Part shown: piece after piece, positions 1,647 to 32,998 of the stretch
Layout: the number at the start of each line of letters is the position of its first letter
Position numbering within the stretch: position 1 is the stretch's first letter
Source: an uncultured Thermoleophilia bacterium
GTDB taxonomy: Bacteria > Actinomycetota > Thermoleophilia > UBA2241
NCBI GenBank assembly: GCA_963705085.1
Contig: CAVPIV010000003.1
Location: forward strand, 343,729-407,728
Direction of reading: 5' to 3'
DNA: 64,000 nt
Notes under the pieces: model-generated
The model's input: only the letters and a program-made list of their open reading frames with translations
What the model was told of the DNA's origin: nothing
Databases searched by the model: none
Made by a program: the position numbers and the translations under genes

Positions 1647-1656
1647 ATGGGACCCC

Positions 1657-8261: not shown

Positions 8262-9053
8262 TCAGGTCGTTCCCGCGGCTACGTCGTCCGCGTCCTTGGC
8301 GCTCACCGGCTTCACCGGTTTGGGTTGTACGTAGCGGGCGATTGGGATCGATACCTCGTACAGAACCAGCAACGGAATGAGCATCGCCACCATGGAGAAG
8401 GCGTCCTGGCCAGGGGTGAGGAGCGCGGCGGCGAGAGCCATGATCACGATCGCGTAGCGGCGGTGCTTGCGCAGGAACTTGTCGTCGATCACGCCAACCT
8501 TGGCGAGCAGCACAAGAACCACGGGCACTTCAAAGATGAGCCCGAACGCGAGGATGAACAGCGCGACGAACGTGAAGTACTCGGTGGCCCGGTTCTGCAC
8601 GTTGAACGTCGACCCCCCGAAGGTCAGCAGGAACGAGAGGCCCTTGGGCAGGACGAAGAGGTACCCGAAGGACACGCCGACGAGGAACAGGGCCGTCGTC
8701 GCGATGACCACGGGGTAGAAGTAGCGCTTCTCGGTGCTCGTGAACGCGGGCCCGACGAACGCCCAGAGTTGCCAGATCAGGAACGGTGAGGCGACGATGA
8801 GGCTTGCGACCACCCAGACCTTGAGACTCACCATGAACGGTTCGACCGGGCTCAGCGTGATGATCTGATACGAGTCGGCGTCGAGATTCGGGACCTGCTT
8901 GAGGGGATAGAGAAGCACGTCGAAGACGTAGTCGTTGAAGATACCGGCCAGAACGATGCCGACGCCGACGACGACGATCGACCAGAAGATGCGCCGGCGC
9001 AGCTCGTCGAGATGCTCGAGGACGGTGAACTTGTCGTCGGGCGAAATCGGCAT
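8262..9053 (-). CDS. tatC: Twin-arginine translocase subunit TatC
   Basis: 263 aa, 6 TM; MPISPDDKFTVLEHLDELRRRIFWS... Confidence 0.9.
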   Translation of the reverse strand: MPISPDDKFTVLEHLDELRRRIFWSIVVVGVGIVLAGIFNDYVFDVLLYPLKQVPNLDADSYQIITLSPVEPFMVSLKVWVVASLIVASPFLIWQLWAFVGPAFTSTEKRYFYPVVIATTALFLVGVSFGYLFVLPKGLSFLLTFGGSTFNVQNRATEYFTFVALFILAFGLIFEVPVVLVLLAKVGVIDDKFLRKHRRYAIVIMALAAALLTPGQDAFSMVAMLIPLLVLYEVSIPIARYVQPKPVKPVSAKDADDVAAGTT

Positions 9054-9056
9054 GGC

Positions 9057-9767
9057 TCAGGCGTCGTCGTCCGCCGAGGAGGCCTCGGGCGCCGGCCTGC
9101 TGAACCTGCGCCGCGGCGGCCCGGGCGGCGGCTCCGCCGCCGGCTGTGCGGCCTCTGCGACCTCATCGGCCGATGCCGACAGGTCGGTCTCGACCTCCTC
9201 GGGCGCCGGCCTGCTGAACCTGCGCCGCGGCGGCCCAGGCGGCGGCTCCGCAGCCGGCTGTGCGGCCTCTGCGACCTCATCGGCCGATGCCGACAGGTCG
9301 GTCTCGACCTCCTCGGGCGCCGGCCTGCTGAACCTGCGCCGCGGCGGCCCGGCCGGTTCGCCGGCGGCGCCGGCGTCCGGGTATGGGGCGATGCCGGCAG
9401 GCCAGGCCGGGCTCTCCTGAGCCGGCTCCGGCACGGTGGCGGCCCCGGTTGCCGGGGCCAGGTCGATCACGGCTGGGGCAGCCGCGGCTGCGGCAGCGGC
9501 GGCCTGCGCGGGCTTGTCCGTGCTCTTCAGATCGATCGTCATGCTCGACTTGAGATCCTTGACACCGGCAGTGGCCTCGTCGACGCCGAGGCTGGACTTC
9601 AGGTCCCTCACGTCGGCCGCCACCTCGTCGATGCCGAGGTCAGAACGCGCCGAGGCCGTGGCCTTCCGGAGCTCACGCATGGCCTGGCCGAGGCTTCGCC
9701 CCGCCTGCGGCAGCCGCTTGGGGCCGAACACGAGCAGAGCAAGGATCAGCACGATCGCGATCTCCAT
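9057..9767 (-). CDS. tatA: Twin-arginine translocase TatA/TatB-family protein with repeat-containing acidic/Pro-rich C-terminal extension
   Basis: Start taken at MEIAIVLILALLVFGPKRLPQAGRSLGQAMRELRK (TatA TM + amphipathic helix). The longer ORF 9812 start is unlikely. The C-terminus carries 38-aa tandem repeats. Confidence 0.8.
   Translation of the reverse strand: MEIAIVLILALLVFGPKRLPQAGRSLGQAMRELRKATASARSDLGIDEVAADVRDLKSSLGVDEATAGVKDLKSSMTIDLKSTDKPAQAAAAAAAAAPAVIDLAPATGAATVPEPAQESPAWPAGIAPYPDAGAAGEPAGPPRRRFSRPAPEEVETDLSASADEVAEAAQPAAEPPPGPPRRRFSRPAPEEVETDLSASADEVAEAAQPAAEPPPGPPRRRFSRPAPEASSADDDA
9070..9370. repeat. 114-bp tandem direct repeat (about 2.6 copies) inside the tatA 3' region
   Basis: Copies begin near 9084, 9198 and 9312. 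They encode GPPRRRFSRPAPEEVETDLSASADEVAEAAQPAAEPPP x2.6. Confidence 0.85.
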
Positions 9768-9962
9768 GGGGCCGATGTTCACGAAGCGTTCCTTGCGCCG
9801 GGTTCGGGTCAACCCATCTTAGGCGGGGCTGCGAAGCCGGTCAACGCGACGCGCTGGGGCCGGGCACGGAGGGCGGCGGCAGCCCCTCCGCGTCGGGCGT
9901 CCCGGAGGCAAAACCCCTGCATTCCACGCCTGCTCTGGGACGCGTCGCCGGGCGCGGGCTAG

Positions 9963-10064: not shown

Positions 10065-10433
10065 ATGACTGAGACGTACCTCACCAACTGGGTGTACATC
10101 TGGCTCTTCATCGCCGCCGGTGGTGCTCTCGTGGCGCTCATCCTTCTCGTCGCCAAACTGGTCACTCCGGACCATCTCACCGCCGAGAAGCTCGCCCCAT
10201 ACGAGTGCGGCATTCCCGCCGTCGGCCGTCCGTGGTCGCCGTTCGCCGTCCGCTACTTCGTGTTCGGCCTCCTCTTCCTGGTGTTCGATGTCGAGGCTGT
10301 CTTCCTGTTCCCATGGGCGATCGTCTTTCGGGACCTCGGGTCGGCCGGCTTCGTCGAGATGGTGATCTTCGTCGCGGTCCTCGGCTTCGGCCTGCTGTAC
10401 GCCTGGCGCAAGGGGGCACTGGAATGGGCGTAA
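10065..10433 (+). CDS. nuoA: NADH-quinone oxidoreductase subunit A
   Basis: [20 protein letters not shown]...YECG...FDVE..FLFPWA; 122 aa. Confidence 0.88.
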
Positions 10434-10975
10434 CCGACGGGGCCGTCGGTCACGCGAGGATCCGGTACCCCAAGCTCGAGCGCTTCGAGCAGCCCAACAT
10501 CATCACCACGACGACCGACTTCATCTTCAGCTGGGCGCGGTCGAACTCGGTATTTCCGTTCCAGTATGGCCTCGCATGCTGCGCGATCGAGATGCTGAGC
10601 TCGGGGTTCTGCCGCTTCGACATCGCGCGCTTCGGCATGGAGGTCTTCCGGCCCACTCCGCGGCAGTGCGACCTGATGATCGTGGCGGGCACCGTCAACG
10701 AGAAGATGGCGCCGGTGCTCGTCCGGCTCTACGAGCAGATGTCAGAGCCCAAGTGGGTGATGAGCATGGGAGCGTGCGCCAACAGCGGCGGCCCGTTCTA
10801 CGACGGCTACAACGTGGTGAACGGGGTGGACAAGATCGTGCCGGTCGACGTCTACGTGCCCGGCTGCCCGCCTCGCCCCGAGGCTCTGTTCCAGGGTCTG
10901 CTCGAGCTGCAGAAGAAGATCCAGCGGTACTCGTTCGTGCCCCAGGCTCCGGTGGCCGGCGCCGGGGAGGGCTGA
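10424..10975 (+). CDS. nuoB: NADH-quinone oxidoreductase subunit B
   Basis: Start at ATG 10424 (MGVTDGA...). [18 protein letters not shown]...CDLMIVAGT...[10 protein letters not shown]...[13 protein letters not shown]. The upstream ORF extension is rejected. Confidence 0.88.
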
Positions 10976-10979
10976 CGCC

Positions 10980-11471
10980 GTGGCGCTTGAGATAGGCTCC
11001 AATCCCATGGAGATCGAGGAGATCGCCGAGCGGCTGTCACTGACGTTCGCGGGCGAGATCGAGGACGTCCGGGTCCAGGAGCCGGAGACGGTGGTGGCTC
11101 GCTGCGGCGCGGCGACCCTCAAGGACCTCGCGCCGCGCCTCAGGGCCGACGAGGACCTGGCCTACGAGACGCTCAACTGGATGGCGGGCGTCGATCGGCT
11201 GACCAATCTGGAGGCCGTCTACCACCTCTACAGCTGGAAGACCAATTCCTACCTGCAGCTGCACGTCTCCCTCCCGGATCCCGCCGAGATCGAGACGGTC
11301 TGCGGCGTCTGGCCCGCGGCCGAGTGGCTCGAGCGCGAGGCGTGGGACATGTTCGGCATCCGCTTCGCCGGCCACCCGGATCTGCGTCGCATCCTGCTCA
11401 AGGACGACTTCATCGGGCATCCGCTGCGCAAGGACTACATTGACCTCGTCGAGAACCACCCCCATGTCTGA
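10980..11471 (+). CDS. nuoC: NADH-quinone oxidoreductase subunit C
   Basis: 163 aa; ...WPAAEWLEREAWDMFGIRFAGHPDLRRILL. Confidence 0.8.
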   Translation: MALEIGSNPMEIEEIAERLSLTFAGEIEDVRVQEPETVVARCGAATLKDLAPRLRADEDLAYETLNWMAGVDRLTNLEAVYHLYSWKTNSYLQLHVSLPDPAEIETVCGVWPAAEWLEREAWDMFGIRFAGHPDLRRILLKDDFIGHPLRKDYIDLVENHPHV

Positions 11472-12678
11472 CGAGTTCGCGACAGCAGTTCCCGACGAGG
11501 CGGTGAAGCTCGCCCAGCGACGCATCGAGGAGGCGAACGCGCACGGCGCCGGCTCGAATCTCGAGGGGCTCACCTTCAACGAGGTCATCGTCAACATGGG
11601 TCCCCAGCATCCGTCGACCCACGGGGTGCTGCGCCTCGTGGTGACGCTGGACGGTGAGCTCGTCAAGGACGTGATCCCGGTCGTCGGGTACCTGCATCGC
11701 TGCAAGGAGAAGCTGGCCGAGAAGCGCACGTACTTTCAGTACATCCCGGTCATCGACCGCACCGAATACCTGGCCGGCATGAACTGCGAGTGGGGGTACG
11801 TGCTGACGGTCGAGAAGCTGGCCAGCATCAGGCCGCCGCGGCGGGCGGAGTTCATCCGCGTCATCATGGCCGAGCTCAACCGCATCGCCAGCCATCTGGT
11901 CGCGGTCGGCACGTTCACCGCCGACCTGGCGCCGCTCGGGACGGCCATGGTCTTCTATATGTTCCGCGACCGGGAGCTCATCCTCGACCTCCTCGAGGAG
12001 GTGAGCGGCGGTCGCATGATGTTCAACTACTTCCGCTTCGGCGGGGTTCGCGACGATCTGCCGGACGGCTGGATCGAAAGATGCCGCGACGTGATGCGCC
12101 GCATGCCGAAGCTCATCGACGAGCACGAGGCGCTCGTCGGCGACAACGCGATCTTCCTGCAGCGCTGCATCGGCAAGGGCGTGATCACCCAGCAGGACGT
12201 GGTCGACTACGCGATCACCGGACCGAACGCGCGCGCCTCCGGAGTGGCTCTCGACCTTCGCCGCACGCGGCCCTACTCGGTCTATCCCGAGCTCGAGTTC
12301 GACGTGCCCCTCGGACGGCACGGCGATGTCTACGATCGCTACCAGGTGAAGATGGACGAGATGCGCCAGTCGGTCAGGATTGTCGAACAGGCGCTGGACA
12401 TGCTGCCCAAGGGGCCGGTCCAGATTGGCTCGCTGCGGGCACCGTACGCGATCGCGCCGCCGCCCGGCGAGTGCTACGCGGCGCAGGAGAACCCGCGCGG
12501 CGAGTACGGCACGTACATCGTGAGCGACGGGACGCGCTACCCTTATCGCCTCAAGTTCCGCGACCCCTGCTTCATGCATCTGCAGATCTTTCCCAAGCTC
12601 CTGCGCGGCAACAAGATCGCGGATGCGGTGGCCATCTCGGGCAGTATGGATCTCGTTCTGGGAGGCATCGACCGGTGA
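11464..12678 (+). CDS. nuoD: NADH-quinone oxidoreductase subunit D
   Basis: Start MSDEFATA at ATG 11464; NMGPQHPSTHGVLRLVVTLDGE...; 404 aa. Confidence 0.88.
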   Translation: MSDEFATAVPDEAVKLAQRRIEEANAHGAGSNLEGLTFNEVIVNMGPQHPSTHGVLRLVVTLDGELVKDVIPVVGYLHRCKEKLAEKRTYFQYIPVIDRTEYLAGMNCEWGYVLTVEKLASIRPPRRAEFIRVIMAELNRIASHLVAVGTFTADLAPLGTAMVFYMFRDRELILDLLEEVSGGRMMFNYFRFGGVRDDLPDGWIERCRDVMRRMPKLIDEHEALVGDNAIFLQRCIGKGVITQQDVVDYAITGPNARASGVALDLRRTRPYSVYPELEFDVPLGRHGDVYDRYQVKMDEMRQSVRIVEQALDMLPKGPVQIGSLRAPYAIAPPPGECYAAQENPRGEYGTYIVSDGTRYPYRLKFRDPCFMHLQIFPKLLRGNKIADAVAISGSMDLVLGGIDR

Positions 12679-13796
12679 GCGATGCCGTCCTCGCCGTCCT
12701 TCGCGCCGTGCTCTTCGTGTTCATCGCCTACACGGTGGTGATGGTCTCCGCGCTCGTCAACATCGTCTTCGAGCGCCGGGTCCTGGGCTTCATGCAGGAT
12801 CGCCTGGGGCCGAATCGAACCGGCCCTCAGGGCGTCCTGCAGAGCGTCGCCGACTCCTTCAAGATGCTGGGCAAGGAGGACTTCCGGCCGCGGCTTGCCG
12901 ACCCGTACCTCTTCACCCTGGCGCCGATCATGGTGATGATCGGCGCCGTCGCCATCCAGGTCGTCGTGCCGTACACGAAGGGCCTGGTCGCCACCGAGCT
13001 CGACGTCGGCGTGATCTTCCTGGTAGCCATCACTGGCTTCACGACGCTGGCCATCCTGCTGGGCGGGTGGTCGTCGAACAACAAGTACTCGCTGGTCGGC
13101 GCGCTTCGCGGCGCCGCCCAGATGATCAGCTATGAGATCCCGATGATCCTGGGCCTCCTGGTGGTGGCCATGACCGTCGGGTCGCTGCGGCTGACGGACG
13201 TCGTGGCTGCGCAGGCCGGGTACCAGTGGCTCGTCTTCTACGCTCCGTTCACGTTTGTCATCTTCTACATCGCTTCGATCGCGGAGCTGAACCGCGGCCC
13301 CTTTGACCTGCCGGAGTCGGAGTCGGAGCTGGTGTCCGGCTACGGGACGGAGTACTCGGGCATGCGCTTCGGCATGTTCTACCTGAACGAGTACGCCGGC
13401 CTCACCATCATGTCCATGGTGACAGTCACCTTGTTTCTGGGAGGCTGGCACGGGCCGTTCGAGGACGCCATCAGCTTCTGGGGCGTGTCGTGGCTGCCGC
13501 TGATCTACTTCCTGGCGAAGACCTACGCGCTCGTCTTCCTGCTCGTCTGGATCAGGCTGTCGCTGCCTCGCCTGCAGGTTGACCAGCTCATGTCCTTCGC
13601 CTGGAAGATCCTCATCCCTCTCGGCCTTGTCAACATCCTCGCGGTCGGCGCCGTGATCCTCTGGGTGCCGCAGTGGAAGTGGGGGCTGGCAATCTACAGC
13701 TGGGTCGCCCTCCTCGCCTTCGTGGCGCTCTTCGATCCCATTCTCAAGTGGCGCCTGCGCAGGCAGCGCGCCCGCCTGCCGGTGGTGCATGCCTGA
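12675..13796 (+). CDS. nuoH: NADH-quinone oxidoreductase subunit H
   Basis: GTG 12675 overlaps the nuoD stop (GTGA), with GGAGG 9 nt upstream. VSALVNIVFERRVLGFMQDRLGPNRTGPQGVLQSVADSFK...; 373 aa, polytopic. Confidence 0.85.
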   Translation: MSDAVLAVLRAVLFVFIAYTVVMVSALVNIVFERRVLGFMQDRLGPNRTGPQGVLQSVADSFKMLGKEDFRPRLADPYLFTLAPIMVMIGAVAIQVVVPYTKGLVATELDVGVIFLVAITGFTTLAILLGGWSSNNKYSLVGALRGAAQMISYEIPMILGLLVVAMTVGSLRLTDVVAAQAGYQWLVFYAPFTFVIFYIASIAELNRGPFDLPESESELVSGYGTEYSGMRFGMFYLNEYAGLTIMSMVTVTLFLGGWHGPFEDAISFWGVSWLPLIYFLAKTYALVFLLVWIRLSLPRLQVDQLMSFAWKILIPLGLVNILAVGAVILWVPQWKWGLAIYSWVALLAFVALFDPILKWRLRRQRARLPVVHA

Positions 13797-14557
13797 TGCT
13801 CGGGATGTTCAAGGCCATGCGGACGACGATTCGCCACCTGCCGACCAGGAAGCTCACCGTGCAGTATCCGGAGGAGCGGGAGAAGCTGCCGGAGCGCAGC
13901 CGCGGCCTGTTCCGCGTCGTCGTCGACCCGCTGAGCGGCGACGCGCGCTGCCGCTCGTGCACGCTCTGCGAGACCAACTGCCCGGTGCAGGTGATCCGTG
14001 TGGAACACTCGAGCACGTACGACCTGCCGGCCCCCAACCTCGCCCGCCTCACGCGAGCGCGTCTCGGCGCCCAGCCCGGCGTCGACCTCGAGCCGTTGCG
14101 CCCCGTGATCGACGACTACCGCGAGCACGGCACAGGCCTCATCGGCATCCTGCAGAACACCCAGGACACCTACAGGTACCTGCCGCGCCGGGCTCTGGAG
14201 GAGATCGCGCTGCAGACGGGCGTCTCTCTCGCGCAGATCTACGGCGTCGCGAGCTTCTACAACCAATTCCGTCTCTCGCCGACCGGCGACTACATCATCG
14301 AGGTGTGCCACGGGACCGCCTGTCACGTCGCGGGCTCGACCAAGATCAGCGAGGCGCTCCAGGAGGAGCTCGGAGTGTCGGAAGGCAAGACGACGGCCGA
14401 CATGAAGTTCACGTTGTCGTCGGTCGCCTGCATGGGGGCGTGTTCGCAGGCGCCGGTCATGCGCGTGGGCGAGCGCACCTTCGGCGGCCTCACGCCCGAC
14501 AAGACGCGACAGGTCATCCGGGAGATCATGCGCGAGGTCGGGGCCGGCGAGGGGTGA
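13796..14557 (+). CDS. Fusion protein: NuoI N-terminal region (one CxxCxxCxxxCP motif) joined to a NuoE-like thioredoxin-fold [2Fe-2S] domain
   Basis: ATG 13796 overlaps the nuoH stop (TGATG). MLGMFKAMRTTIRHLPTRKLTVQYPEEREKLPERSRGLFRVVVDPLSGDARCRSCTLCETNCPVQVIRVE matches the NuoI N-terminus plus the first cluster motif. The protein then continues as NuoE-like: LIGILQNTQDTYRYLPRRALEEIALQTGVSLAQIYGVASFYNQF...CHGTACHVAGS...CMGACSQAPVMRV. The second NuoI ferredoxin motif is absent. Confidence 0.75.
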   Translation: MLGMFKAMRTTIRHLPTRKLTVQYPEEREKLPERSRGLFRVVVDPLSGDARCRSCTLCETNCPVQVIRVEHSSTYDLPAPNLARLTRARLGAQPGVDLEPLRPVIDDYREHGTGLIGILQNTQDTYRYLPRRALEEIALQTGVSLAQIYGVASFYNQFRLSPTGDYIIEVCHGTACHVAGSTKISEALQEELGVSEGKTTADMKFTLSSVACMGACSQAPVMRVGERTFGGLTPDKTRQVIREIMREVGAGEG

Positions 14558-14559
14558 GC

Positions 14560-16497
14560 ATGGACGTGGACAACCACATCCCCGACGCCCCGGAGCCGGT
14601 CGACCAGACGCCGCCGGCGGACGAGTCAGCACCGCAGGCCGAAGGTCGCGCGGTGCGCGTCGCCGCGACCGAGGGCGGCTACCGCGTCTCGGTCTGCGCC
14701 GGGACCGCCTGCACGTTCGCGGGCTCGGCCGCCGTCTTCGACGCCTTCGTGCGCAAGGTCGAGGCCGCTGGTCTGAGCGATCGTGTCGAGGTCTCGATCG
14801 TGGGGTGCCACGGCCTCTGCACGATGAGCCCGGTCGTGGTGCTTGGCGACGACACGCTCTACGGGCACTTGCGGCCCGAGGATGTGAGCGTCGTCGTGTT
14901 GCAGCACCTCGAGAGCGGCGTTCCCGTCGAGAGGTTCCTCTACAAGGATCCGCGCACCGGTGAGCGGGTGCGCGACTGGCACGACATCGAGTTCTACAAG
15001 CAGCAGACGCGTATTGCGCTGCGCAACGTCGGCCGGGTCAATCCGGAGAGCATCGACGAGTACGTCGCCCGCGGCGGATACGAGGCGGCCCGGATGGTCC
15101 TGACGGAGAAGACGCCGGAATGGGTCGTCGGGCAGGTGACCGAGTCAGGCGTTCGCGGTCGCGGCGGCGCTGGGTTCTCGACGGGCGTCAAGTGGGAGCT
15201 GGCCAAGAAGTCGCGCGGCGACGTCAAGTACATCATCTGCAACGGCGACGAAGGCGACCCCGGGGCGTTCATGGACGCCTCCATCATGGACGGCGATCCG
15301 CACGCGGTGATCGAGGGCATGATCATCGGCAGCTACGCTATCGGCGCGCACCAGGGCTACATCTATGTGCGCGCCGAGTATCCGCTCGCCGTTCGCCGCC
15401 TCACCAAGGCGATCGCCGACGCCGAGGCGGCGGGCTATCTCGGAGATGACGTGATGGGCAGCGGCTGGGCCTTCCACCTCAAGCTCAAACTCGGCGCCGG
15501 CGCCTTCGTCTGCGGCGAAGAGACGGCGCTCATCGCCTCCATCGAGGGCCGCCGCGGCATGCCTCGCACGAGGCCGCCGTATCCTGCCGTGAGCGGCCTC
15601 TGGGGCAAGCCGACGAACATCAACAACGTCGAGACGTTCGCCAACATCCCGTGGATCGTCATGCATGGAGCGGACGCCTACGCCGAGCTCGGCGTGGCGG
15701 GGTGCCACGGCACCAAGGCGTTCAGCCTGGCCGGCAAGCTCGTCAACGGCGGGCTCGCCGAGATCCCCATGGGCGTGACCCTGCGGCACGTCATCTACGA
15801 CGTCGGCGGGGGCATCCGGGACGGCCGTCAATTCAAGGCCGTGCAGCTCGGAGGCCCGTCGGGCGGGTGCGTCCCGGCGAGCATGCTGGACACGCCCGTC
15901 GACTACGAGAGCCTGGCCGCGACGGGCGCCATGGTCGGCTCGGGCGGCATCGTCGCCGTGGACGATCAGACCTGCATGGTCGACATGGCGCGCTTCTTCT
16001 TGCGCTTCACGCAGAGCGAATCCTGCGGCAAGTGCATCCCGTGCCGGCTGGGCACCAAGCGCATGCTCGACGTCCTCGACCGCATCGTCTCCGGAGAGGG
16101 TCGGGACGGCGACGTCGAGCTCCTCGGGGAGATGGGCGCCCACGTGTCGGAAGGCAGCCTGTGCGCCTTGGGGGGCACCGCGCCCAACCCCGTCCTCACC
16201 ACGATCAAGTACTTCCGCCGGGAGTACGAGGCGCACATCCACGAGAAGCGCTGCCCGGCCGGGACCTGCAAGGCGCTCATCCGCTACACCATCGACCCGG
16301 ACGCCTGCACGGGCTGCACGCTCTGCGCGAAGAAGTGCCCGGTCGCTTGCATCGGCGGCGAACGCAAGCAGGTCCACGTCATCGACCAGAGGGCCTGCAT
16401 CAGGTGCGACACGTGTCGTCTGGTCTGCAAGTTCAACGCCGTCCGTGTGCTCTCCGGGGTCGACGAGCCCGCGCCCGTGGTCGGCGGAGGGGTGTGA
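14560..16497 (+). CDS. NuoF-like FMN/NADH-binding flavoprotein with extra N-terminal [2Fe-2S] and C-terminal 2x[4Fe-4S] domains (BfuB/HydB-type)
   Basis: 645 aa. N-terminus VCAGTACTFAGS...VGCHGLC. Core GRGGAGFSTGVKWE, ICNGDEGDPGAFMD, FVCGEETALIASIEG, SCGKCIPCR. C-terminus CPAGTCK...CTGCTLCAKKCP...CIRCDTCRLVC. Confidence 0.82.
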   Translation: MDVDNHIPDAPEPVDQTPPADESAPQAEGRAVRVAATEGGYRVSVCAGTACTFAGSAAVFDAFVRKVEAAGLSDRVEVSIVGCHGLCTMSPVVVLGDDTLYGHLRPEDVSVVVLQHLESGVPVERFLYKDPRTGERVRDWHDIEFYKQQTRIALRNVGRVNPESIDEYVARGGYEAARMVLTEKTPEWVVGQVTESGVRGRGGAGFSTGVKWELAKKSRGDVKYIICNGDEGDPGAFMDASIMDGDPHAVIEGMIIGSYAIGAHQGYIYVRAEYPLAVRRLTKAIADAEAAGYLGDDVMGSGWAFHLKLKLGAGAFVCGEETALIASIEGRRGMPRTRPPYPAVSGLWGKPTNINNVETFANIPWIVMHGADAYAELGVAGCHGTKAFSLAGKLVNGGLAEIPMGVTLRHVIYDVGGGIRDGRQFKAVQLGGPSGGCVPASMLDTPVDYESLAATGAMVGSGGIVAVDDQTCMVDMARFFLRFTQSESCGKCIPCRLGTKRMLDVLDRIVSGEGRDGDVELLGEMGAHVSEGSLCALGGTAPNPVLTTIKYFRREYEAHIHEKRCPAGTCKALIRYTIDPDACTGCTLCAKKCPVACIGGERKQVHVIDQRACIRCDTCRLVCKFNAVRVLSGVDEPAPVVGGGV

Positions 16498-18977
16498 GGA
16501 CGCTGGCCACGCCTGCCCGAGACGTGCGGCGGCCGCCGCCGCAGCCTGGCCAGGTGATCGTCGAGATCGACGGCCAGGAGATCGCCTGCGATCGCGGCGA
16601 GACAGTCCTGGTGGCCGCGCGGCGGGCCGGCATCCACATCCCGACGCTGTGCCTCGAGCCGCGCCTGCCGGCCACCGGCGCCTGCCGTATGTGCGTCGTC
16701 GAGATCGAGGGCGCGCGCAAGGTGATGACCAGCTGCACGACGGCCGTCGCGGACGGTATGGTGGTGCGCACCAACACGCAGAAGCTGCGCGCCATGCGGC
16801 ACTTCTACCTTGAGTTGCTGCTGAGCGACCACAACTCCTTCTGCACCCCGCCGTGTCGCGATGCCTGCCCGACGCACATCAAGATCCCCCAGTTCCTCGA
16901 CTTCATCGCGCACCGCGACTACAAGAACGGCGTACGAAAGCTGCGAGAGGATCTGCCCTTCCCCGCCATTCTCGGTCGGGTCTGCCCGCGACCCTGCGAA
17001 GGACCATGCCGGCGCCAGCTCGTCGACCAGTCGATAACGATCTGCCAGCTGCATCGCTTCATGGCCGACCAGTGCCTCGACGAGGAGCAGGAGGGCGAAT
17101 TGCTGCTGCCGGTCGAGCCGAAGGCCGACACCGGCAAGAAGATCGCGATCGTCGGCGGCGGACCCGCCGGGCTCGCCGCCGCCTTCTACGCGCGGCTCGA
17201 GGGCCATGCGGTCAAGATCTTCGAAGCCATGCCCAAGCCGGGTGGGATGCTGCGCTACGGGATTCCGAGCTACCGGCTGCCGCGCGAAGTGCTGGAGAAG
17301 GAGATCAACGTACTCTGGCGCCTGGGAGTCGGGCTGCAGGCGAACACGAGGCTGGGGGTCGACCTCCAGCTCGAAGATCTGCTCGCGGAGTACGACGCCG
17401 TCTTCCTCGCCCTCGGGGCGTTCAACAGCAACGACATGGGGATCCCGGGCGAGGACGCCGACGGGGTCGTCAACGCGGTCGACTTCCTCGGCGAGCTCGA
17501 GCTCCACGGCGATGTGCACGTGGGCCGGCGGGTGACGGTCATCGGTGGCGGCTTCACCGCCATGGACGCCTGCCGGACCTCGGTGCGCAAGGGGGCCGAG
17601 GAGGTCACCTGTCTCTACCGGCGGTCACGCAAGGAGATGCCGGCGCACCACAGCGAAGTCGACGAGGCCGAGGAAGAAGGCGTCAGGCTCGAGCTCCTGT
17701 GCGCTCCCGTCCGGGTCGTGACGGACGAGGCCAACAAGGTGACGGGGATCGAGATGCAGCGCATGGAGCTCGGTGAGCCGGACGCATCGGGCCGGCGCCG
17801 CCCTGTCCCGCTGGATGGCTCCGAGTTCATCGTCGAGTGCGATCAGATCATCGCGGCGATCGGCCAGTATCCGCGGCTGGACGGGACGAGCGAGGAGCAG
17901 GGTGTCACCCGCACCAGGTGGCGCACGATCAAGGTTGACGACTGGACCTATCAGACCGCCGATCCGCGGGTCTTCGCCGGCGGCGACGTCGTGCTCGGAG
18001 CGCAGACGGTGGTCCAGGCGGTGGCCCAGGGCAAGAAGGCCGCCTGGAGCATGGACGCCTTCTTGCGAGGCGCCGATATGGCGGCCGTGACGGAGCAGCT
18101 CGCGCTCCTCAAGTCGGCGCCCTTCGTCGAGGCGCTGGCCGTCAGGGGCGACGTCGACCCGCGTATTGCGCGCATGGCCGAGATCCCGCCGGTGTTCATC
18201 GACATGACGACCGACGTGACCGGTCCGCTGCCGCCGGCCGAGATGCCGATGCTGACGCCGGGCGAACGCCGCGGCGACTTCCGGCAGATCGAGCTCGGCT
18301 TCGGCGAGGACGCCGCCGCCGAGGGCGCGGGACGGTGCCTCGACTGCTACTGCCCAGCGAACGGCGCCTGCGACCTGCAGCGGTACAGCATTGAGTACGA
18401 GGTCTTCCACAACCGCTTCCACGGCGGAGAGGCTCACAACTACCCCGCCGACTTTCGCCACGACTTCATCATGCGCGAGCCCAATCGCTGCATCAACTGC
18501 GGGCGCTGCGTACGCGTGTGCCGCAGCGAGGTCGGGGCGAGCTGCTACGACAACATGGGGCGGGGGTACGACGCCATCGTCAGCACCGCCGACAACCTGC
18601 CGCTGCAGATGGTCGGTTGCGTGTCGTGCGGCAAGTGCGCCGAGACGTGCCCAACGGGCGCGATCGTCACCAATCCGCGGAAGCTGGAGCGGTACGGGCT
18701 CGACTTCAGCCGCTGCATGTTCTGCGGCGAGTGCGTCGAGGTCTGCCCGTACGACGCGCTCGAACAGAGGAGCTTCTTCGAGCTCGCGGACTTCAGTCGC
18801 GGCGCGCTCGCCGCCGAGTCGCTGTACGTACGGGAGCCGCGCCCTGTCGACCTGCTGCGCGAGACGGTGACCGATCTGGTGCCGCACGTCCTCGACGCGG
18901 AGCTCGGCCGTGGCTGGGTATGGGAGCCCATCAAGGACGATCCCGTGCGCCTTGACGGCGAGGAGGGTGAGTGCTGA
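16494..18977 (+). CDS. Multi-domain Fe-S flavoprotein: N-terminal NuoG/HydA-like [2Fe-2S] ferredoxin domain, GltD/NfnB-like FAD/NAD(P)H domain, and C-terminal NuoG-like His/[4Fe-4S] clusters plus a NuoI-like 2x[4Fe-4S] ferredoxin tail
   Basis: Start uncertain (GTG 16494 or GTG 16521). N-terminus IVEIDGQEIACDRGETV...CLEPRLPATGACRMCVVE. GltD-like CTPPCRDACPTHIKIPQF...GRVCPRPCEGPCRRQ, KKIAIVGGGPAGLAAAFY. C-terminus RCLDCYCPANGACDLQ, RCINCGRCVRVCRSEVG...GRGYDA, CVSCGKCAETCPTGAIVTNPRKLERYGLDFSRCMFCGECVEVCPYDALEQRSFFELADF. The last part aligns to the NuoI core and tail (ERY...RCIFCGLCEEACP...DFEMADY). Confidence 0.75.
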   Translation: MRTLATPARDVRRPPPQPGQVIVEIDGQEIACDRGETVLVAARRAGIHIPTLCLEPRLPATGACRMCVVEIEGARKVMTSCTTAVADGMVVRTNTQKLRAMRHFYLELLLSDHNSFCTPPCRDACPTHIKIPQFLDFIAHRDYKNGVRKLREDLPFPAILGRVCPRPCEGPCRRQLVDQSITICQLHRFMADQCLDEEQEGELLLPVEPKADTGKKIAIVGGGPAGLAAAFYARLEGHAVKIFEAMPKPGGMLRYGIPSYRLPREVLEKEINVLWRLGVGLQANTRLGVDLQLEDLLAEYDAVFLALGAFNSNDMGIPGEDADGVVNAVDFLGELELHGDVHVGRRVTVIGGGFTAMDACRTSVRKGAEEVTCLYRRSRKEMPAHHSEVDEAEEEGVRLELLCAPVRVVTDEANKVTGIEMQRMELGEPDASGRRRPVPLDGSEFIVECDQIIAAIGQYPRLDGTSEEQGVTRTRWRTIKVDDWTYQTADPRVFAGGDVVLGAQTVVQAVAQGKKAAWSMDAFLRGADMAAVTEQLALLKSAPFVEALAVRGDVDPRIARMAEIPPVFIDMTTDVTGPLPPAEMPMLTPGERRGDFRQIELGFGEDAAAEGAGRCLDCYCPANGACDLQRYSIEYEVFHNRFHGGEAHNYPADFRHDFIMREPNRCINCGRCVRVCRSEVGASCYDNMGRGYDAIVSTADNLPLQMVGCVSCGKCAETCPTGAIVTNPRKLERYGLDFSRCMFCGECVEVCPYDALEQRSFFELADFSRGALAAESLYVREPRPVDLLRETVTDLVPHVLDAELGRGWVWEPIKDDPVRLDGEEGEC

Positions 18978-19489
18978 TGCCCGGCGGCGACTTCCATCCG
19001 TGGCTCTTCGTCATCGTCGCCGCCTGGGTGCTGATCTGCGCCCTCGGCGTCGTCGCCGCGAAGAAGGTCATGTACTCGGCCGTGTCGATGGTCCTCTGCT
19101 TCCTTGGGATCGCCTTCGCGTACGCGCTGCTCAACGCCGAGCTCGTGGCCGTCATGCAGTTGCTGGTGTACGTAGGCGCGATCTCCATCGTGATCATCTT
19201 CGCGATCATGCTCACCGAGGTGCAGGAGGGCGGCTATCGGCTGTTCTTCAACCGGCAGGCAGTCGCTGCCGCGGTGCTGGCCGCCGTCGGCGCCGTGGCG
19301 GTCGTGGCGGCGATCGTGACCGACGATACCGGCACGGCGGCGACGGAGACGCTCAGCCCGGGTGTGAGGGAGCTCTCCGCCCTCCTCTTCAACCGCTACG
19401 TGCTGCCCTTCGAGGTCATCTCGCTCGTGCTGCTGGCGGCGATGATCGGCGCCATCGTCCTGGCCCGCAAGCAGGAGGAACGGCGATGA
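18977..19489 (+). CDS. nuoJ: NADH-quinone oxidoreductase subunit J
   Basis: ATG 18977 overlaps the upstream stop (TGATG), with AGGAGGG 10 nt upstream. 170 aa, 5 TM. Confidence 0.8.
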   Translation: MPGGDFHPWLFVIVAAWVLICALGVVAAKKVMYSAVSMVLCFLGIAFAYALLNAELVAVMQLLVYVGAISIVIIFAIMLTEVQEGGYRLFFNRQAVAAAVLAAVGAVAVVAAIVTDDTGTAATETLSPGVRELSALLFNRYVLPFEVISLVLLAAMIGAIVLARKQEERR

Positions 19490-19794
19490 GCGCTCTCACC
19501 TGGTGGCTGGCCCTGGCCGTGGCGCTCTTCTTCATCGGCGCCTACGGCGTGCTCGCCCGGCGCAACGTGATCGTCGTCGTGATGAGCCTGGAGATCATGC
19601 TGAGCGCGGTGAACATCGCGCTGGTGGCGATCTCCTCGTTCCGCACGGGCGTCCCCGGCGGCGGCGCCGTGTTCGCGCTGTTCATCATCGCGCTGGCGGC
19701 CGCCGAGGTGACGGTTGGCATGGCCATCATCGTCGCGAACTATCGGCATCGGCGCACCATCCAGGCCGACCGGTACGACGAGCTCAAGGGCTAG
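19486..19794 (+). CDS. nuoK: NADH-quinone oxidoreductase subunit K
   Basis: ATGA overlap with nuoJ; 102 aa; MSALTWWLALAVALFFIGAYGVLARRNVIVVVMSLEIMLSAVNIALVA. Confidence 0.85.
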   Translation: MSALTWWLALAVALFFIGAYGVLARRNVIVVVMSLEIMLSAVNIALVAISSFRTGVPGGGAVFALFIIALAAAEVTVGMAIIVANYRHRRTIQADRYDELKG

Positions 19795-19818: not shown

Positions 19819-21715
19819 ATGACCTGGATCGTCGCGCTCATACCGTTGCTGCCGTTGGCCGGGTTCATCATCACGCTGCTCGTCGGCAAGCGACTCAGGC
19901 TGCAGGCGCACCTGGTGCCGACCGCGTTCGTCACAGTCTCGGCGGCGCTCTCGGTGGCCGCGTTCGTCTGGGCGCTCGGCCACGAGGGCGAGGTGTTCAT
20001 CTACCAGCCCTTCACGTGGATCACGGCTGGGACCTTCGACGCTCAGTGGGGTTTCCAGGTCGACAGCCTGACGGGGATCATGCTGCTCGTCGTCGGACCG
20101 ATCGGCATGCTCGTGCACTACTACTCGATCGGCTACATGAAGGAGGACCCGGGCTACTACCGGTTCTTCGCCTACCTCAATCTCTTCATGTTCGCCATGT
20201 TCATGCTGATCCTGGCCGACAACTACCTGCTGATGTTCCTCGGCTGGGAGGGCGTCGGCCTCTGCTCGTACCTGCTGATCGCCTTCTGGTACCGCAAGAA
20301 GAGCGCCAGCCAGGCGGGCAAGAAAGCCTTCCTTGTCAACCGTGTCGGCGACTTCGGCTTCACGCTCGGCATGTTCCTCATCTTCGTGACGACCGGCACG
20401 CTGCAGTTCGCGGGCGTCTTCGAGCGTGCCGACGCGGGCGACATCGGCGCCACGACGCTGACCTGGATCTGCCTGCTCCTCTTCGTCGGCGCCGTGGGCA
20501 AGAGCGCGCAGTTCCCGCTGCACGTCTGGCTGCCGGACGCCATGGAGGGTCCTACGCCGGTCAGCGCGCTCATCCATGCGGCGACGATGGTGAACGCCGG
20601 CGTGTACATGGTGGCGCGCTCCTATCCGCTGTTCCTGCACAGCGAGGCGGCGCTGGGCGTGGTCATGGTCATCGGCACGTTCACGGCGATCTACGCCGCC
20701 TTCATCGCCCTCACCCAGACCGACATCAAGAGGGTCATCGCCTACTCGACGATCTCGTCGCTCGGCTTCATGTTCATGGCCCTGGGCGCCGGCGCCTGGG
20801 TGGCCGGCATCTTCTACCTGTTCGCTCACGGCTTCTTCAAGGGGCTGCTCTTCCTCTGCTCGGGGTCGGTCATCCACGGGATGTCCGGGGAGCAGGACAT
20901 GCGGCTCATGGGCGGCCTGCGACGGAAGCTGCCGATCACCTTCTGGACGATGCTGATCGGGGCGCTGGCCATGGTCGGCGTCTTCCCCTTCGCGGGGTTC
21001 TGGGCCAAAGACGAGATTCTCGCCGGCGCCTTCCATCAGTCGATCGTGGTTTGGACCGTGGGCATCGTGACGGCCTTCCTCACGGCGATCTACATGTTCC
21101 GCCTCATGTTCATGACCTTCTGGGGCGAGTGCCGCGCCGGCAGCGTGACCAAGGCTCACATCCACGAGTCCCGCGCCGTGATGACCGTGCCCCTCGTGCT
21201 GCTCGCGGTACCGGCGGCGCTGCTTGGTCTTCTGGTCGGCTGGCCGCCTGAAGGGGGCTGGCTCCACGCCTTCCTCGAGCCGGTCTTCTTCGAACTGGAG
21301 CACGAGGAGTTCCGTTGGCTTGGTACCGGCGGCCTGCTGATGGCGCTCTCTCTCGCCGTCGTGCTGGTGGGGATCGCCGTCGCCTACCGTCTCTACGTCC
21401 GGGACGTTGCAGTCCCCGACAGGCTGGCCAGGCGGCTCCCGGGCGTGTACCGGGCCTCCCTCAACAAGCTGTACATGGACGAGCTCTACGAAGGTCGTGC
21501 CGATCCGCAGCACCGTCGCCGCGGCGCGGTGGCTCTGGACGTTCTTCGACGTCAAGGTCATCGACGGCGCCGTCAACGGCGTCGCCCGGGTCTGGGAACT
21601 GGCCGGCGAGCGGTTGCGCCCGCTGCAGACCGGCCGCGTGCAGAACTACGCCCTGTCCATGCTCGTCGGCATGGTGATCCTGGTCGTCGTCTTCGCCTGG
21701 GTGTGGGTGGCCTGA
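19819..21715 (+). CDS. nuoL: NADH-quinone oxidoreductase subunit L (one apparent 1-nt frameshift near 21493)
   Basis: Frame 1 runs to ...LNKLYMDELYE. Frame 2 continues VVPIRSTVAAARWLWTFFDVKVIDGAVNGVA...QNYALSML to the stop at 21713-21715. A single missing base in gaa(a)ag restores the full-length protein. Confidence 0.75.
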
Positions 21716-23303
21716 TGGGCTGGCAGGATCAGATCGGCTTCCCCATCCTGTCCGTCATCACCTACCTGCCGCTGCTCGGCGTGCTCGTGATCCTGCTGGC
21801 CGGGAACGGTCGGCCCGTCGTGTACAAGGCCATCTCGCTGGTCGTGACCCTGGCGGCGCTCGTGCTTGCCGTGGTGATGCTGCTGGCCTTCGACACCGTC
21901 GCCCCCGGCCTGCAGTTCGTCGAGGACGTCGCCTGGATCCCGTCGCTCAACATCCGCTACGGCTTCGGCGTCGACGGCATCAGCGCCCTCCTCATCTTTC
22001 TCACGGCGCTGCTCGGCGTGATCGTGGTCGTGGCCAGCTGGCACTACGCCAAGCAGCGCGAGATGGGGTTCTTCGTCTCACTCCTGCTGCTGCAGGCGGG
22101 CATGGTCGGCGTGTTCTGCGCCACCGATCTCTTCCTGTTCTACGTGTTCTGGGAGGCATGCTGGTGCCGATGTACTTCCTCATCGGCATCTGGGGCGGCC
22201 CCGGCGTGTCTACGCGGCGATCAAGTTCTTCCTCTTCACCCTGGTCGGCAGCCTGCTGATGCTGGTCGCCATCGTCGTCGTCGTGTACTACAGTGCAACG
22301 ACGCTCGCGGGGTCCTCACGTTCGACATCCGGGAGCTGAGCGCGCAGGCCTATTCCTACCGCTGCAGTTCTGGGCCTTCCTCGCCTTCTTCCTGGCGTTC
22401 GCCATCAAGGTGCCCATGTTCCCGGTCCACACCTGGCTGCCGGACGCCCACGTGGAGGCGCCGATGGCAGGCTCGGTGATCCTGGCGGGCGTGCTCCTGA
22501 AGATGGGCGGGTACGGCATGCTGCGCTTCTGCCTGCCCTTCTTCCCCGACGCCGCGGTGACTTCGCGCCGTTCATCGTCATCCTCTCGGTGATCGCGATC
22601 GTCTACGGCGCCCTGGTCTCGCTCGCCAGAAGGACCTCAAGAAGCTGGTGGCCTACTCGAGCGTCAGCCACATGGGCTTCGTGACGGCCGGCATCTTCGC
22701 CTCCATCGTGATCGCCGGCAACGCGGTGGGCATGGAGGGCGCCATCCTCGTGATGTTCAGCCACGGCGTCCTCACCGGCGCCCTGTTCCTCATGGTCGGG
22801 CTTCCTGTACGAGCGCACGCATACCCGGCAGCTCGCCGAGATGGCCATGCTGGCCACGCCGTTGCCGGTCACCGGCGGGGTTCCTGCTGTTCTTCGCCCT
22901 GGGCTCGCTCGGCCTGCCCGGCCTGAGCGGGTTCGTCGGGGAGTTCCTCAGCCTGCTCGGGCTGTTCCAGTACTCATCATGGCTGACGGCGATCGCCGCG
23001 CTGGGCGTCATTCTGGCGGCTGCCTATCTGCTCTGGATGTACCAGCGGGTGATGTTCAACGACCGTGGCGACGTTGACTTCGTCACGCCCTCCATCGGCC
23101 TGCAGGACTCGGCGCTCGCGAGATCGTCTCGCTGCTGCCCCTGGTCGTGCTTCGCGGTCTGGCCCGGGGTCTACCCGAACACGTTCCTCGACTTCCTGCA
23201 CGTGCCGGTGCGCGAGATCCTCGATCAGGTCGATGCCGTCGCTCGACGCCGCTCGCTCCGACGGGCTGGCGCAGCTCCTGTCTCCGCCAAGGCGATCTTC
23301 TGA
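21715..23303 (+). pseudogene. nuoM: NADH-quinone oxidoreductase subunit M, interrupted by multiple 1-nt frameshifts (probable sequencing errors)
   Basis: NuoM segments recovered in three frames: MGWQDQIGFPILSVITYLPLL.../MLVPMYFLIGIWGG.../[38 protein letters not shown].../[16 protein letters not shown].../LWMYQRVMFNDRGD. Shifts fall in G/C homopolymer runs. Confidence 0.7.
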
Positions 23304-24890
23304 TGTACGCCAACAACTCGGTCGACGATCATTCTGCCCGTGCGTCGTCCTGGCGCTCGCGGCGGCGGCGGTCTTCGCCGTCGACCTGTTCGTGGAACGC
23401 AAGGCCGCGCTCGCCTGGCTGGCCGGCGCCGGCCTGCTTGGCGCCGCGGCGGTCGCTGTGGGGCAGTGGCTGGCGATGGCCGACGGCGTCGCGGGCGGGC
23501 AGTCGCCCGAGGTCGGCTTCGCCGGCATGGTCGCGCTCGACGAGTACGCGCTCTTCGGGGTCGTCCTGTTCGCCGCGATCGGCGTGTTGACGATCATGCT
23601 CTCGGACTCCTATCTGGCCCGGCGCCGGGCGGCGCGCGGCGAGTTCTACGGCCTGCTGCTGCTGGTCGTGACCGGCATGGTCGGCATGGTCGCGAGCACC
23701 GACATCATCATGTTCTTCATCTCGTTCGAGCTGATGTCGCTGCCCACGTACGTCCTGGCCGGCTACCTGTGGCGGGATGAGCGCTCCGGGGAGGCGTCGC
23801 TCAAGTACTTCGTCAACGGCGCGTTCTCCTCGGCGATCCTCGCTTTCGGTCTGGCGCTCCTGTACGGGGCGACCGGCCAGACCAACTACGGGGCCATCGC
23901 CGAGAGGCTCGCGACGGCGCTCACCCCGGTCGGGACGACGGGTTGCTCGTCGTCGCCCTCGTCCTCACGGTGACCGGCTTCGGCTTCAAAGTGTCGACGG
24001 TGCCCTTCCACGGCTGGGCGCCCGACGTCTACGAGGGTGCCCCTACGCCGGTCACGACATTCATGTCGGTGGGCATCAAGGCGGCGGCCTTCGCCGGATT
24101 CGCGCGGCTGTTCACGGTGGCCGTCGGCGACGGAGTGGGCGACGTGGGGCAACGCCATGATCGTCCTTGCGGTGCTCACGATGATCGTCGGGAACGTTCT
24201 CGCTCTGCCGCAGCGCAATCTCAAGCGGATGCTTGCCTACTCCAGCATCGCCCACGCCGGCTACCTGCTGCTGGGCCTCATCGTCGCGGGTCGCGGCGAC
24301 GGCGCGCTCGGCGTCGTCGGCCGTCCTCTTCTACCTGGCGGCCTACGCCTTCATGAACCTCGGGGCGTTCGGCATCCTGATCTGGATCCGCAACCGACGC
24401 CCGTTCGACTACACCCTGGACGAGATCAGCCGGCCTCGGGCGGCTCGATGCCGTGGGCCGGCGATCTGTCATGGCCGCTGTTCATGCTGTCGCTGACGGG
24501 CATCCCGCCGATGGTCGGGTTCTGGGGCAAGTTCTACCTCTTCACGGCGGTCGTGAGGCCGGCTACACCTGGCTGGCCATCGTTGCCGTGATCATGAGCG
24601 CCGTGTCGGCCTTCTACTACCTGCGCGTCGTCTGGTACATGTACTTCCGCGAGGCGCAGGATCAGCAGGCGGGCGGGCCGGCGGACGAGCTCGCGGCGCC
24701 CCTTCGCGACGGGCCGTCGGGCGTGCCGAGCGCGGACGCGCCCGCTGAGTCCCGGGCCGGTCGAGCGCGGCGCTTCGCCGCCGTCGGCCTGGCGGCGGCG
24801 GGCGTGCTCGCCTTCGGCCTCTTCCCGGAACCGCTGCTCAACGCCACCGAGGTCGCTGTCCGGCTGATCCTCGCGGCTGACGGCCGGCGG
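23303..24890 (+). pseudogene. nuoN: NADH-quinone oxidoreductase subunit N, interrupted by multiple frameshifts (probable sequencing errors)
   Basis: ATG 23303 overlaps the nuoM stop (TGATG). NuoN segments in alternating frames: ...VVLALAAAAVFAVDLF.../MFFISFELMSLPTYVLAGY.../[36 protein letters not shown].../[16 protein letters not shown].../[21 protein letters not shown]. The 3' end is uncertain. Confidence 0.65.
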
Positions 24891-30426: not shown

Positions 30427-30480
30427 CTCTCCGGCCTCAGACGTGCAAGGCCGGGCCGGCGCTGTTGGTCCTGCCGACCG

Positions 30481-31671: not shown

Positions 31672-31741
31672 CAGGTCACTCCCCCCTTGGAACAGTGTGC
31701 GGCCCTCCGAGCCGTGCGGGCTCGGAGGGCCGCTGAATGCG

Positions 31742-32956: not shown

Positions 32957-32998
32957 CGTGCCTACCTCCGTCCTGGTTGCGCGCGCATCCCGACCGGC

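Follow-up and report, generated by a model that had tools for sequence, protein, structure and literature searches.

A predicted Nfn/Stn-type bifurcating module joined to complex I through a divided NuoI in an uncultured Thermoleophilia bacterium

Among the electron-bifurcating enzymes of the Bfu family, the Nfn-Bfu/Stn type is represented by NfnABC of Caldicellulosiruptor saccharolyticus (Csac; PDB 9bov) (PMC11829005), StnABC of Sporomusa ovata (8oh5) (PMC7483475) and NfnABC of Thermococcus sibiricus (Tsib; 9n5u) (PMC12018979). Electrons in Csac NfnABC follow the path FAD-A7-A6-A3-A2-A1 to B1-FMN-C1, with C1 leading on to B3/B4 and ferredoxin, and an A4 branch in NfnA heads to a formate-dehydrogenase-like C-terminal domain (PMC11829005). 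Bfu modules have also been predicted in association with other enzymes. Schut et al. (2022) proposed Nuo-Bfu, a complex I of 14 separate subunits (A-N) with an intact NuoI and no NADPH/GltD domain, for BfuB clades 38/39 in Geobacter and other Proteobacteria, Deferribacteres, Planctomycetes and Nitrospirae; this predicted enzyme would oxidise NADH and reduced ferredoxin together, which would give more driving force for reducing menaquinone, and would also pump protons (PMC9304861). The same work predicted Por-Bfu, with separate subunits of pyruvate:ferredoxin oxidoreductase (POR), in Chloroflexi and Proteobacteria (PMC9304861), and a GltD-like protein that replaces NuoI was described in Mbx-like operons (Degli Esposti, 2015). 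Here we describe a flavoprotein gene at positions 14560-16497 of a 64,000-nucleotide stretch of DNA from an uncultured Thermoleophilia bacterium (contig CAVPIV010000003.1, positions 343,729 to 407,728; referred to below as the window), together with its two neighbours and the complex I operon that encloses them.

On the basis of sequence comparison we propose that at this locus an Nfn/Stn-type BfuABC module takes the place of the NuoEFG input of complex I, with a split NuoI as the covalent link between module and complex, in an enzyme that would reduce menaquinone and pump protons. We regard this proposal as fairly probable when taken as a whole, and our confidence differs among its elements: we are very confident of what the parts are, as read from their sequences, highly confident that the Bfu module is physically integrated into complex I, and moderately confident of a true ferredoxin-coupled (confurcating) reduction of menaquinone, as predicted by homology.

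Domains and placement of the flavoprotein

The flavoprotein is encoded by an intact open reading frame on the plus strand (ATG at 14560, TGA ending at 16497; 645 amino acids). A preliminary description had recognized it as a NuoF homolog with an N-terminal [2Fe-2S] and a C-terminal 2x[4Fe-4S] addition, and domain searches bear this out. Pfam places a thioredoxin-like [2Fe-2S] domain (2Fe-2S_thioredx), corresponding to B5, at residues 38-113 (nucleotides 14671-14898, E = 1.4e-9), followed by the Nuo51 FMN domain Complex1_51K at residues 193-364 (15136-15651, E = 6e-48), which belongs to a core carrying the motif RGRGGAGFSTG. The NADH_4Fe-4S domain of cluster N3/B1 spans residues 475-559 (15982-16236, E = 9e-32), and two Fer4 motifs at residues 576-628 (16285-16443, E = 5.8e-8) make up the predicted B3/B4 2x[4Fe-4S] domain, a ferredoxin domain that non-bifurcating homologues lack. 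Between the last two lies the motif HIH..CPAGTC (16234-16269), a predicted B2/Zn site assigned by homology, in which C565 and C570 follow the HIH; this segment reads HIHEKRCPAGTC in the flavoprotein and aligns with HIKDKRCPAKIC of 7t2r_B, the B subunit of NiFe-HydABCSL, and with HIRDKKCPAKQC of 9bov_B from Csac NfnABC.

The cysteine motifs of both additions score as Fe-S domains and match B5 and B3/B4 of the solved enzymes. The N-terminal set is C46/C51/C83/C87 (Cx4C...Cx3C, as in NiFe-HydB), the N3/B1 ligands are C489/C492/C495/C535, and the C-terminal domain has C583/586/589/593 and C613/616/619/623, all eight of which align with 7t2r_B and 9bov_B. These predicted ligands are nearly invariant: the B5 cysteines are kept in 53-54 of 54-55 orthologous loci, the N3/B1 cysteines are invariant across orthologues, and the B3/B4 cysteines are present in 41-43 of 41-43 orthologous loci. 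The B2/Zn site is almost as constant (C565 in 44/45 orthologues and C570 in 43/44), and the non-ligand residues C382 and C597 vary.

A search of the sequences in the PDB aligned residues 43-628 in one stretch with seven structurally characterised bifurcating B subunits, at E values of 1e-240 to 1e-200. The best were 7t2r_B (4e-240) and 9bov_B (7e-233), and the others were 8oh5_B (Sporomusa Stn), 9n5u_B (Tsib NfnABC) and the HydB proteins of A. woodii, T. kivui and T. maritima. Canonical NuoF, Nqo1 and NDUFV1 chains (418-464 amino acids) reach only residues ~153-564, in keeping with the preliminary description, which held that canonical NuoF lacks both additions. Because the terminal domains would inflate full-length scores, a second search used just the FMN/N3 core (residues 153-565) as query. 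The bit scores, which provide a ranking and not a phylogenetic tree, were 649 for Csac NfnB, 639 for StnB, 622 for NiFe-HydB, 607 for Tsib NfnB and 569-528 for HydB of the three species, compared with 425 for the non-bifurcating FdsB, 384 for NuoF of T. thermophilus and E. coli, and 354 for the actinobacterial NuoF of M. smegmatis. The matches come in the same order as with the full-length protein. The NCBIfam model nuoF_fam covers only residues 158-560 and scores 491.9 bits, under its cutoff of 558.65.

The order obtained with the core alone points to a Bfu origin for the flavoprotein, which by these comparisons is closest to the Nfn/Stn type and is not an elaborated actinobacterial NuoF. As far as its sequence can tell, it has every mark of a BfuB subunit: the core, B3/B4, B5, the B2/Zn motif, the partner proteins and the grouping by score.

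Fusion neighbours and the divided NuoI

The window has a G+C content of 65-73% and contains a long plus-strand operon that runs from ~10.06 kb to 24.9 kb in the order nuoABCDH-[NuoI N-half+BfuC]-BfuB-[BfuA with GltD insert+NuoI C-half]-nuoJKLMN. The gene upstream of the flavoprotein (13796-14557, plus strand) encodes a fusion protein of 253 amino acids, which we call protein 1, identified from Pfam, TIGR01971 and PDB matches. Its residues 1-74 (13796-14017) are an N-terminal half of NuoI that includes the first CxxCxxCxxxCP motif (C52-C62); a conserved linker (residues 75-103) connects this half to a BfuC/NuoE/HydC [2Fe-2S] domain (residues 104-244; 2Fe-2S_thioredx, 3.5e-48) with the predicted ligands C171/C176/C212/C216. 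In PDB searches residues 4-73 matched NDUFS8 and residues 95-246 matched NfnC/HydC (5.6e-49). All eight cysteines of protein 1, the C1 ligands among them, are invariant among orthologues, and the NuoI part is its best-conserved segment, with a mean identity of 0.78 to the window residue.

The downstream gene (16494-18977, plus strand) encodes the 827-residue protein 3, a BfuA with a GltD insert followed by the C-terminal half of NuoI, as judged from Pfam, PDB and TIGR01971 matches; its length is counted from the GTG at 16494, and the start may also be at 16524 or 16554. From the N terminus it has a NuoG-type A1 [2Fe-2S] domain (Fer2_4, residues 21-95, nucleotides 16554-16778), the 2x[4Fe-4S] part of the GltD insert (Fer4_20, residues 117-197, 16842-17084), FAD/NADPH domains with an LYRRSRKEMPA motif (Pyr_redox_2, residues 216-513, 17139-18032), an all-cysteine A2 cluster site (CxxCxCx5C, 18324-18416) and an A3/A4 2x[4Fe-4S] ferredoxin-like domain (18465-18665). 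The GltD-domain subunit that had been noted beside the flavoprotein is therefore real, since Fer2_4, Fer4_20 and Pyr_redox_2 are all assigned by Pfam. Protein 3 is colinear with NfnA/StnA (9bov_A, 6e-191 over residues 21-746; also 8oh5_C and 9n5u_A), and the two partners of the flavoprotein are, at the sequence level, NfnC/HydC-like and NfnA/StnA-like. The homology to NfnA ends at about residue 746, where CMFCGECVEVCPYDALEQRSFFELADF... belongs to the second NuoI half, which is followed by the tail. That half comprises residues 727-773 (18672-18812; CMFCGECVEVCP...FELADF) and begins about 20 residues downstream of the A4 cluster site, and the conserved C-terminal tail has ~55 amino acids (18813-18974). 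The cluster cysteines of protein 3 are invariant, with one of the eight GltD cluster cysteines at 43/44.

That the two segments are halves of one NuoI is indicated by the NCBIfam model TIGR01971 (121 positions). Positions 2-66 match residues 8-74 of protein 1 (3.4e-13) and positions 69-115 match residues 727-773 of protein 3 (1.1e-16); when the halves are joined head to tail, positions 2-115 match as one stretch with E = 8.6e-28, at 96.4 bits against a cutoff of 113. The hallmarks of NuoI (the N-terminal amphipathic segment, YPEE..P.R.RG and two CxxCxxCxxxCP motifs) are colinear and are carried on two polypeptides. The joined halves also align colinearly with NuoI/NDUFS8 chains from human, plants, yeast and bacteria; the join needs a gap of only 5 residues and is located in the loop that separates the two cluster motifs. 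Four CxxCxxCxxxC motifs have to be paired, and the inferred pairing is that of motifs X and Y of protein 3 in the A3/A4 domain and of motif W of protein 1 with the last motif of protein 3, Z, in the N6a/N6b domain of NuoI. Pairing Y with Z as a complete ferredoxin, which would orphan the motif of protein 1, was rejected because TIGR01971 covers only positions 69-115 on protein 3 and positions 2-66 on protein 1; Y, moreover, aligns with the A4 motif of Csac NfnA. No intact nuoI occurs in the operon besides the two fused halves, and among the 120 matches listed for a search with the concatenated halves no unsplit NuoI appeared, only the two halves themselves. Likewise, the operon has no further nuoE, nuoF or nuoG besides the three Bfu-type genes.

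The other subunits of complex I flank the three genes on the same strand. Upstream are nuoA (10065-10433), whose translation is a typical NuoA and which heads the syntenic block in ~50 loci; nuoB (10424-10975), with the N2 ligands in CC...GAC...GCPP; a short nuoC (10980-11471, 163 amino acids); nuoD (11440-12678), with the quinone-site motifs QHPSTHG and DRTEY (His and Tyr) and none of the NiFe cysteine motifs in its product; and nuoH (12675-13796), assignments that rest on translation, motif or junction sequence and synteny. The TGA of nuoH (13794-13796) overlaps the ATG of protein 1, and the junctions from nuoH to nuoJ are, in order, TGATG, a 2-nucleotide gap, GTGA and TGATG. Downstream follow nuoJ (18977-19489), whose ATG at 18977 overlaps the TGA of protein 3 and which has an in-frame GTG at 18971, nuoK (19486-19794), nuoL (19819-21682), and nuoM (21594-23234) and nuoN (23383-24872), both with approximate limits.

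With the operon's only NuoI divided between BfuC and BfuA, the module very probably sits on the Q-module of complex I. The genes could also encode two enzymes that form no joint complex, a soluble NfnABC transhydrogenase that merely lies inside the operon of an 11-subunit complex I, and BfuABC genes are indeed known for free-standing soluble enzymes. We consider this very improbable: NuoI is found in the operon solely as halves fused to BfuC and BfuA, both halves are highly conserved, including the NuoI-specific N-terminal 50 residues, and the gene overlaps indicate co-translation.

The arrangement recurs well beyond the window. Public data contain more than 120 full-length homologues of protein 1 at 63-100% identity, and the named ones come from Thermoleophilia metagenome-assembled genomes (MAGs). 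In a synteny scan with one genome per species, which returned 80 loci, the whole block nuoABCDH-[I'E]-F-[G'..'I]-JKL was present in ~55, with identities down to ~50-60%. Nearly all of these ~55 loci are labelled Thermoleophilia, Actinomycetes or Actinomycetota, and their MAGs originate from soils, peat and bogs, lake sediment and anaerobic reactors. The predicted ligand cysteines of all three proteins, those of both NuoI halves included, are invariant or nearly so, and non-ligand cysteines vary. The full fusion of a NuoI N-half to NuoE was found in only two clusters plus fragments of a 50%-identity library with 1.84 billion representatives, and the design is therefore phylogenetically narrow.

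Variant cassettes, predicted electron routes and alternatives

A second cassette of the same design is linked to POR at 18 loci (L057, L059, L060, L062, L063, L066-L068 and L070-L079; for example L059:7691-15836), often in the same MAGs as the nuo-linked one. Its order is porG-porA-[half-ferredoxin+BfuC]-BfuB-[BfuA(GltD)+half-ferredoxin+PorB], and its ligands are again all invariant. When the half-ferredoxins of L059, the single paralogue scanned, were compared with NCBIfam, NuoI ranked first (2.1e-20, positions 33-120), and these halves lack the first ~26 residues of NuoI. A split PorD was considered as their origin and rejected, as PorD was not among the top 25 NCBIfam families for L059. Five further loci (L069, L058, L061, L064 and L080) have a BfuC+BfuB pair, with a BfuB 63-69% identical to the window protein and without a BfuA match. 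The pair at L069:6370-12374, the one examined, is directly downstream of fhs (formate-tetrahydrofolate ligase), fchA (cyclodeaminase) and folD, and may be a Bfu core tied to the folate branch of one-carbon metabolism.

The electron transfer chain of complex I ends in N6a-N6b-N2-quinone. In the mechanism that we propose for the integrated enzyme, the two NuoI halves would reassemble into a two-cluster (N6a/N6b) ferredoxin fold on the NuoB/D/H Q-module, and the Fe-S chain of BfuA would act as a T-junction. Electrons from NADPH would be taken up by the FAD of the GltD insert and reach A3 by way of A7-A6, where the chain would fork. One branch would run over A2-A1 to the B1-FMN-C1 site, where NAD(H) would bind, and on to B3/B4, the site for ferredoxin; the other would run from A4 through N6a/N6b and N2 to menaquinone. 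Such an enzyme would pump protons while reducing menaquinone with electrons from three donors, NADH entering at FMN, NADPH at the GltD FAD and reduced ferredoxin at B3/B4. Its most plausible mode would be confurcation, the joint oxidation of NADH and reduced ferredoxin that was suggested for Nuo-Bfu, supplemented here by a port for NADPH. The preliminary description had argued for NAD(P)H/ferredoxin chemistry rather than simple NADH:quinone input, and both the Fe-S domain assignments and the score ranking of the flavoprotein support this reading, with the chemistry itself predicted from homology. It did not mention that the module is built into complex I through the split NuoI, a context more unusual than the one it described; quinone is very probably still a substrate, and the module would add to NADH:quinone input and not replace it.

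Regions 1648-5796 and 25758-33430 of the window encode an indolepyruvate:ferredoxin oxidoreductase-like protein (POR_N, TPP_enzyme_C, Fer4), two phenylacetate-CoA ligase-like proteins, a branched-chain amino-acid ABC transporter set and an ACT-domain protein. This gene content suggests a ferredoxin-reducing catabolism of aromatic amino acids, and fits a catabolism that produces reduced ferredoxin.

Several observations weigh against the proposed ferredoxin-coupled, NuoI-joined enzyme. The first is thermodynamic: a quinone at about -74 mV would pull electrons downhill from all donors, and the bifurcating core could be short-circuited by it and maybe serve just as a wire. There are also two variant loci. 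L051:10001-14273 keeps the nuo context and the split NuoI and has a degenerate flavoprotein of 461 amino acids that lacks the terminal Fe-S domains; protein 3 of this locus contains, inside its GltD region, a two-cluster domain of the BfuB C-terminal type. On L081:359-11571, a singleton contig with 49% G+C, the order is nuoH-[NuoI-N+NuoE]-[BfuB N-domain+FMN core+GltD]-[NuoG-N+NuoI-C]-nuoJKLMN, and GltD takes the place of the B3/B4 C-terminal 2x[4Fe-4S] domain of the flavoprotein. As both loci keep the split NuoI without an intact BfuB, the ferredoxin-binding domain is not essential to the general design. In addition, the Bfu placement rests on the bit-score ranking given above, an AlphaFold2 prediction of the concatenated NuoI halves without an alignment was too low in confidence to use (pLDDT 29.7, pTM 0.17), and the reading frames of nuoL, nuoM and nuoN change relative to orthologues in other MAGs.

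The variant loci favour a non-bifurcating alternative, in which the complex is an NADH- and NADPH:menaquinone oxidoreductase, the extra domains of BfuB are a structural or wiring legacy of an Nfn ancestor, and ferredoxin is not a substrate. The reduction of quinone with NAD(P)H is exergonic in itself, L081 without B3/B4 and L051 with its degenerate BfuB both retain the split NuoI and the nuo context, and B5 of Csac NfnB can hold Zn with function kept (PMC11829005). Set against these points, the eight B3/B4 and four B5 ligands are conserved in 41-55 orthologues in which non-ligand cysteines vary, the core is most like enzymes shown to need ferredoxin, and the genome context includes ferredoxin-reducing oxidoreductases. 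We therefore judge the non-bifurcating enzyme unlikely, though it deserves to be taken seriously. An improbable alternative is that the complex runs in reverse, with the proton-motive force and menaquinol driving electrons uphill so that NADPH and/or reduced ferredoxin become available to biosynthesis. Reversibility is established for Bfu enzymes as well as for complex I (PMC9304861), and the paralogous cassette is attached to POR, which can make pyruvate when given low-potential electrons; the sequence gives no direction, however, and the adjoining genes point to an amino-acid catabolism that makes, rather than uses, reduced ferredoxin.

The frame changes downstream raise the question of an assembly artefact or a decaying pseudogene cluster. 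Relative to orthologues there is an apparent frameshift near 21490 in nuoL, several in nuoM and one near 24555 in nuoN. They are probably assembly errors of the long-read indel kind and could also be decay in this one genome. As an explanation of the architecture we give an artefact or pseudogene cluster almost no credence: the three central reading frames are intact, and the same architecture recurs in ~55 independent MAGs, which many different studies produced, as well as in hundreds of metagenome proteins. An artefactual origin of the architecture is refuted by this recurrence in many independent assemblies.

With L081 added to the Thermoleophilia loci, a split NuoI with an inserted input module is present in at least two distant lineages, and the inserted subunits are domain-shuffled. 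NuoF-GltD fusions akin to that of L081 are also encoded in one Dehalococcoidia and one Poribacteria genome, beside NuoE and/or FdhA-like genes and not beside nuo genes. A bolder reading of these loci, to which we give somewhat less than an even chance, is that BfuCBA was inserted in frame into the surface loop that separates the cluster-binding halves of NuoI, creating a two-chain ferredoxin "plug" that would covalently connect a flavin-based bifurcation module to its host enzyme and would have been reused for POR in the same genomes and reshuffled in L081; in complex I the outcome would be a pump with four substrates (NADH, NADPH, ferredoxin and menaquinone).

Some features lie outside this argument. 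Proteins P0166 (L086:2459-3367) and P0259, whose genes follow hdrC- and hdrB-like genes, combine an N-terminal fragment of HdrA with a single CxxCxxCxxxCP motif and a NuoE domain; HdrA may show the same design of a cassette inside a ferredoxin domain, on contigs that are short. Within the window, a 114-bp tandem repeat (9083-9356, 2.4 copies, 97% match) in the minus-strand gene 9057-9812 encodes 38-residue repeats that belong to the C-terminal tail of a TatA/B-like protein, and its neighbour at 8262-9053 looks like tatC. The minus strand at 43393-44787 encodes a DUF362 protein that has a 2x[4Fe-4S] domain at its C terminus, and tRNA genes at 33702-33774 (minus) and 54731-54803 (plus) are the sole Rfam matches in the window.

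Comparison with known systems

The locus bears on the 2022 proposals (Nuo-Bfu and Mbh-Bfu) that Bfu modules are coupled to ion pumping. The physical link through NuoI is harder to dispute than gene adjacency alone, and it makes the predicted electron path, A4 to N6a/N6b to N2, a definite one. If the proposal is true, a natural ferredoxin fold is formed from two chains, and one adaptor serves two host enzymes; one proton pump would link the NADH, NADPH and ferredoxin pools to the membrane, and the energy metabolism of widespread uncultured Thermoleophilia would be more ferredoxin-centred than aerobic cultured members suggest.

In full-text literature searches we found neither a split NuoI nor a GltD-bearing Nuo-Bfu described, and no account of such systems from Actinomycetota; Actinobacteria are not mentioned in the main text or one supplementary file of Schut et al. 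(2022) (PMC9304861). The arrangement also differs from that of the Mbx-like operons of Degli Esposti (2015). With Por-Bfu the Thermoleophilia POR-linked paralogue shares a Bfu module genetically joined to another oxidoreductase, and it differs in having porG-porA upstream and PorB fused downstream.

Canonical complex I, as in T. thermophilus (Nqo2/1/3), E. coli and M. smegmatis, has in common with the window operon the FMN/N3 core, the NuoE [2Fe-2S] cluster, the N-terminal clusters of NuoG and the membrane and Q-module subunits. It differs in all the input subunits: its NuoF is without both terminal domains that make the window protein 645 residues long with two extra Fe-S domains, its NuoG ends in a molybdopterin-like domain and contains no GltD insert, and its NuoI is one polypeptide. 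Nuo-Bfu is closer, being a complex I cluster with a BfuABC-type NADH module and a HydB-like NuoF. In the window, however, the module occupies the interval from nuoH to nuoJ, BfuC and BfuA each carry a fused half of the split NuoI, BfuA is of the Nfn type with GltD, and the host belongs to the Thermoleophilia (Actinomycetota).

The closest resemblance is to NfnABC and Stn, which have the same domain order in all three subunits and provide the best PDB matches for all three proteins; their BfuA likewise has A1, the GltD insert (A6/A7, FAD and the NADPH motif), the all-cysteine A2 and A3/A4. NfnA and StnA continue into a formate-dehydrogenase-like C terminus, whereas here the NuoI C-half stands in its place, BfuC bears the NuoI N-half, and the genes are found within a nuo operon and not as those of a free-standing soluble enzyme. 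What appears to be new, by sequence, is thus the split NuoI together with a GltD-bearing Nfn-type module in complex I; the Nuo-Bfu idea and the Bfu family were known.

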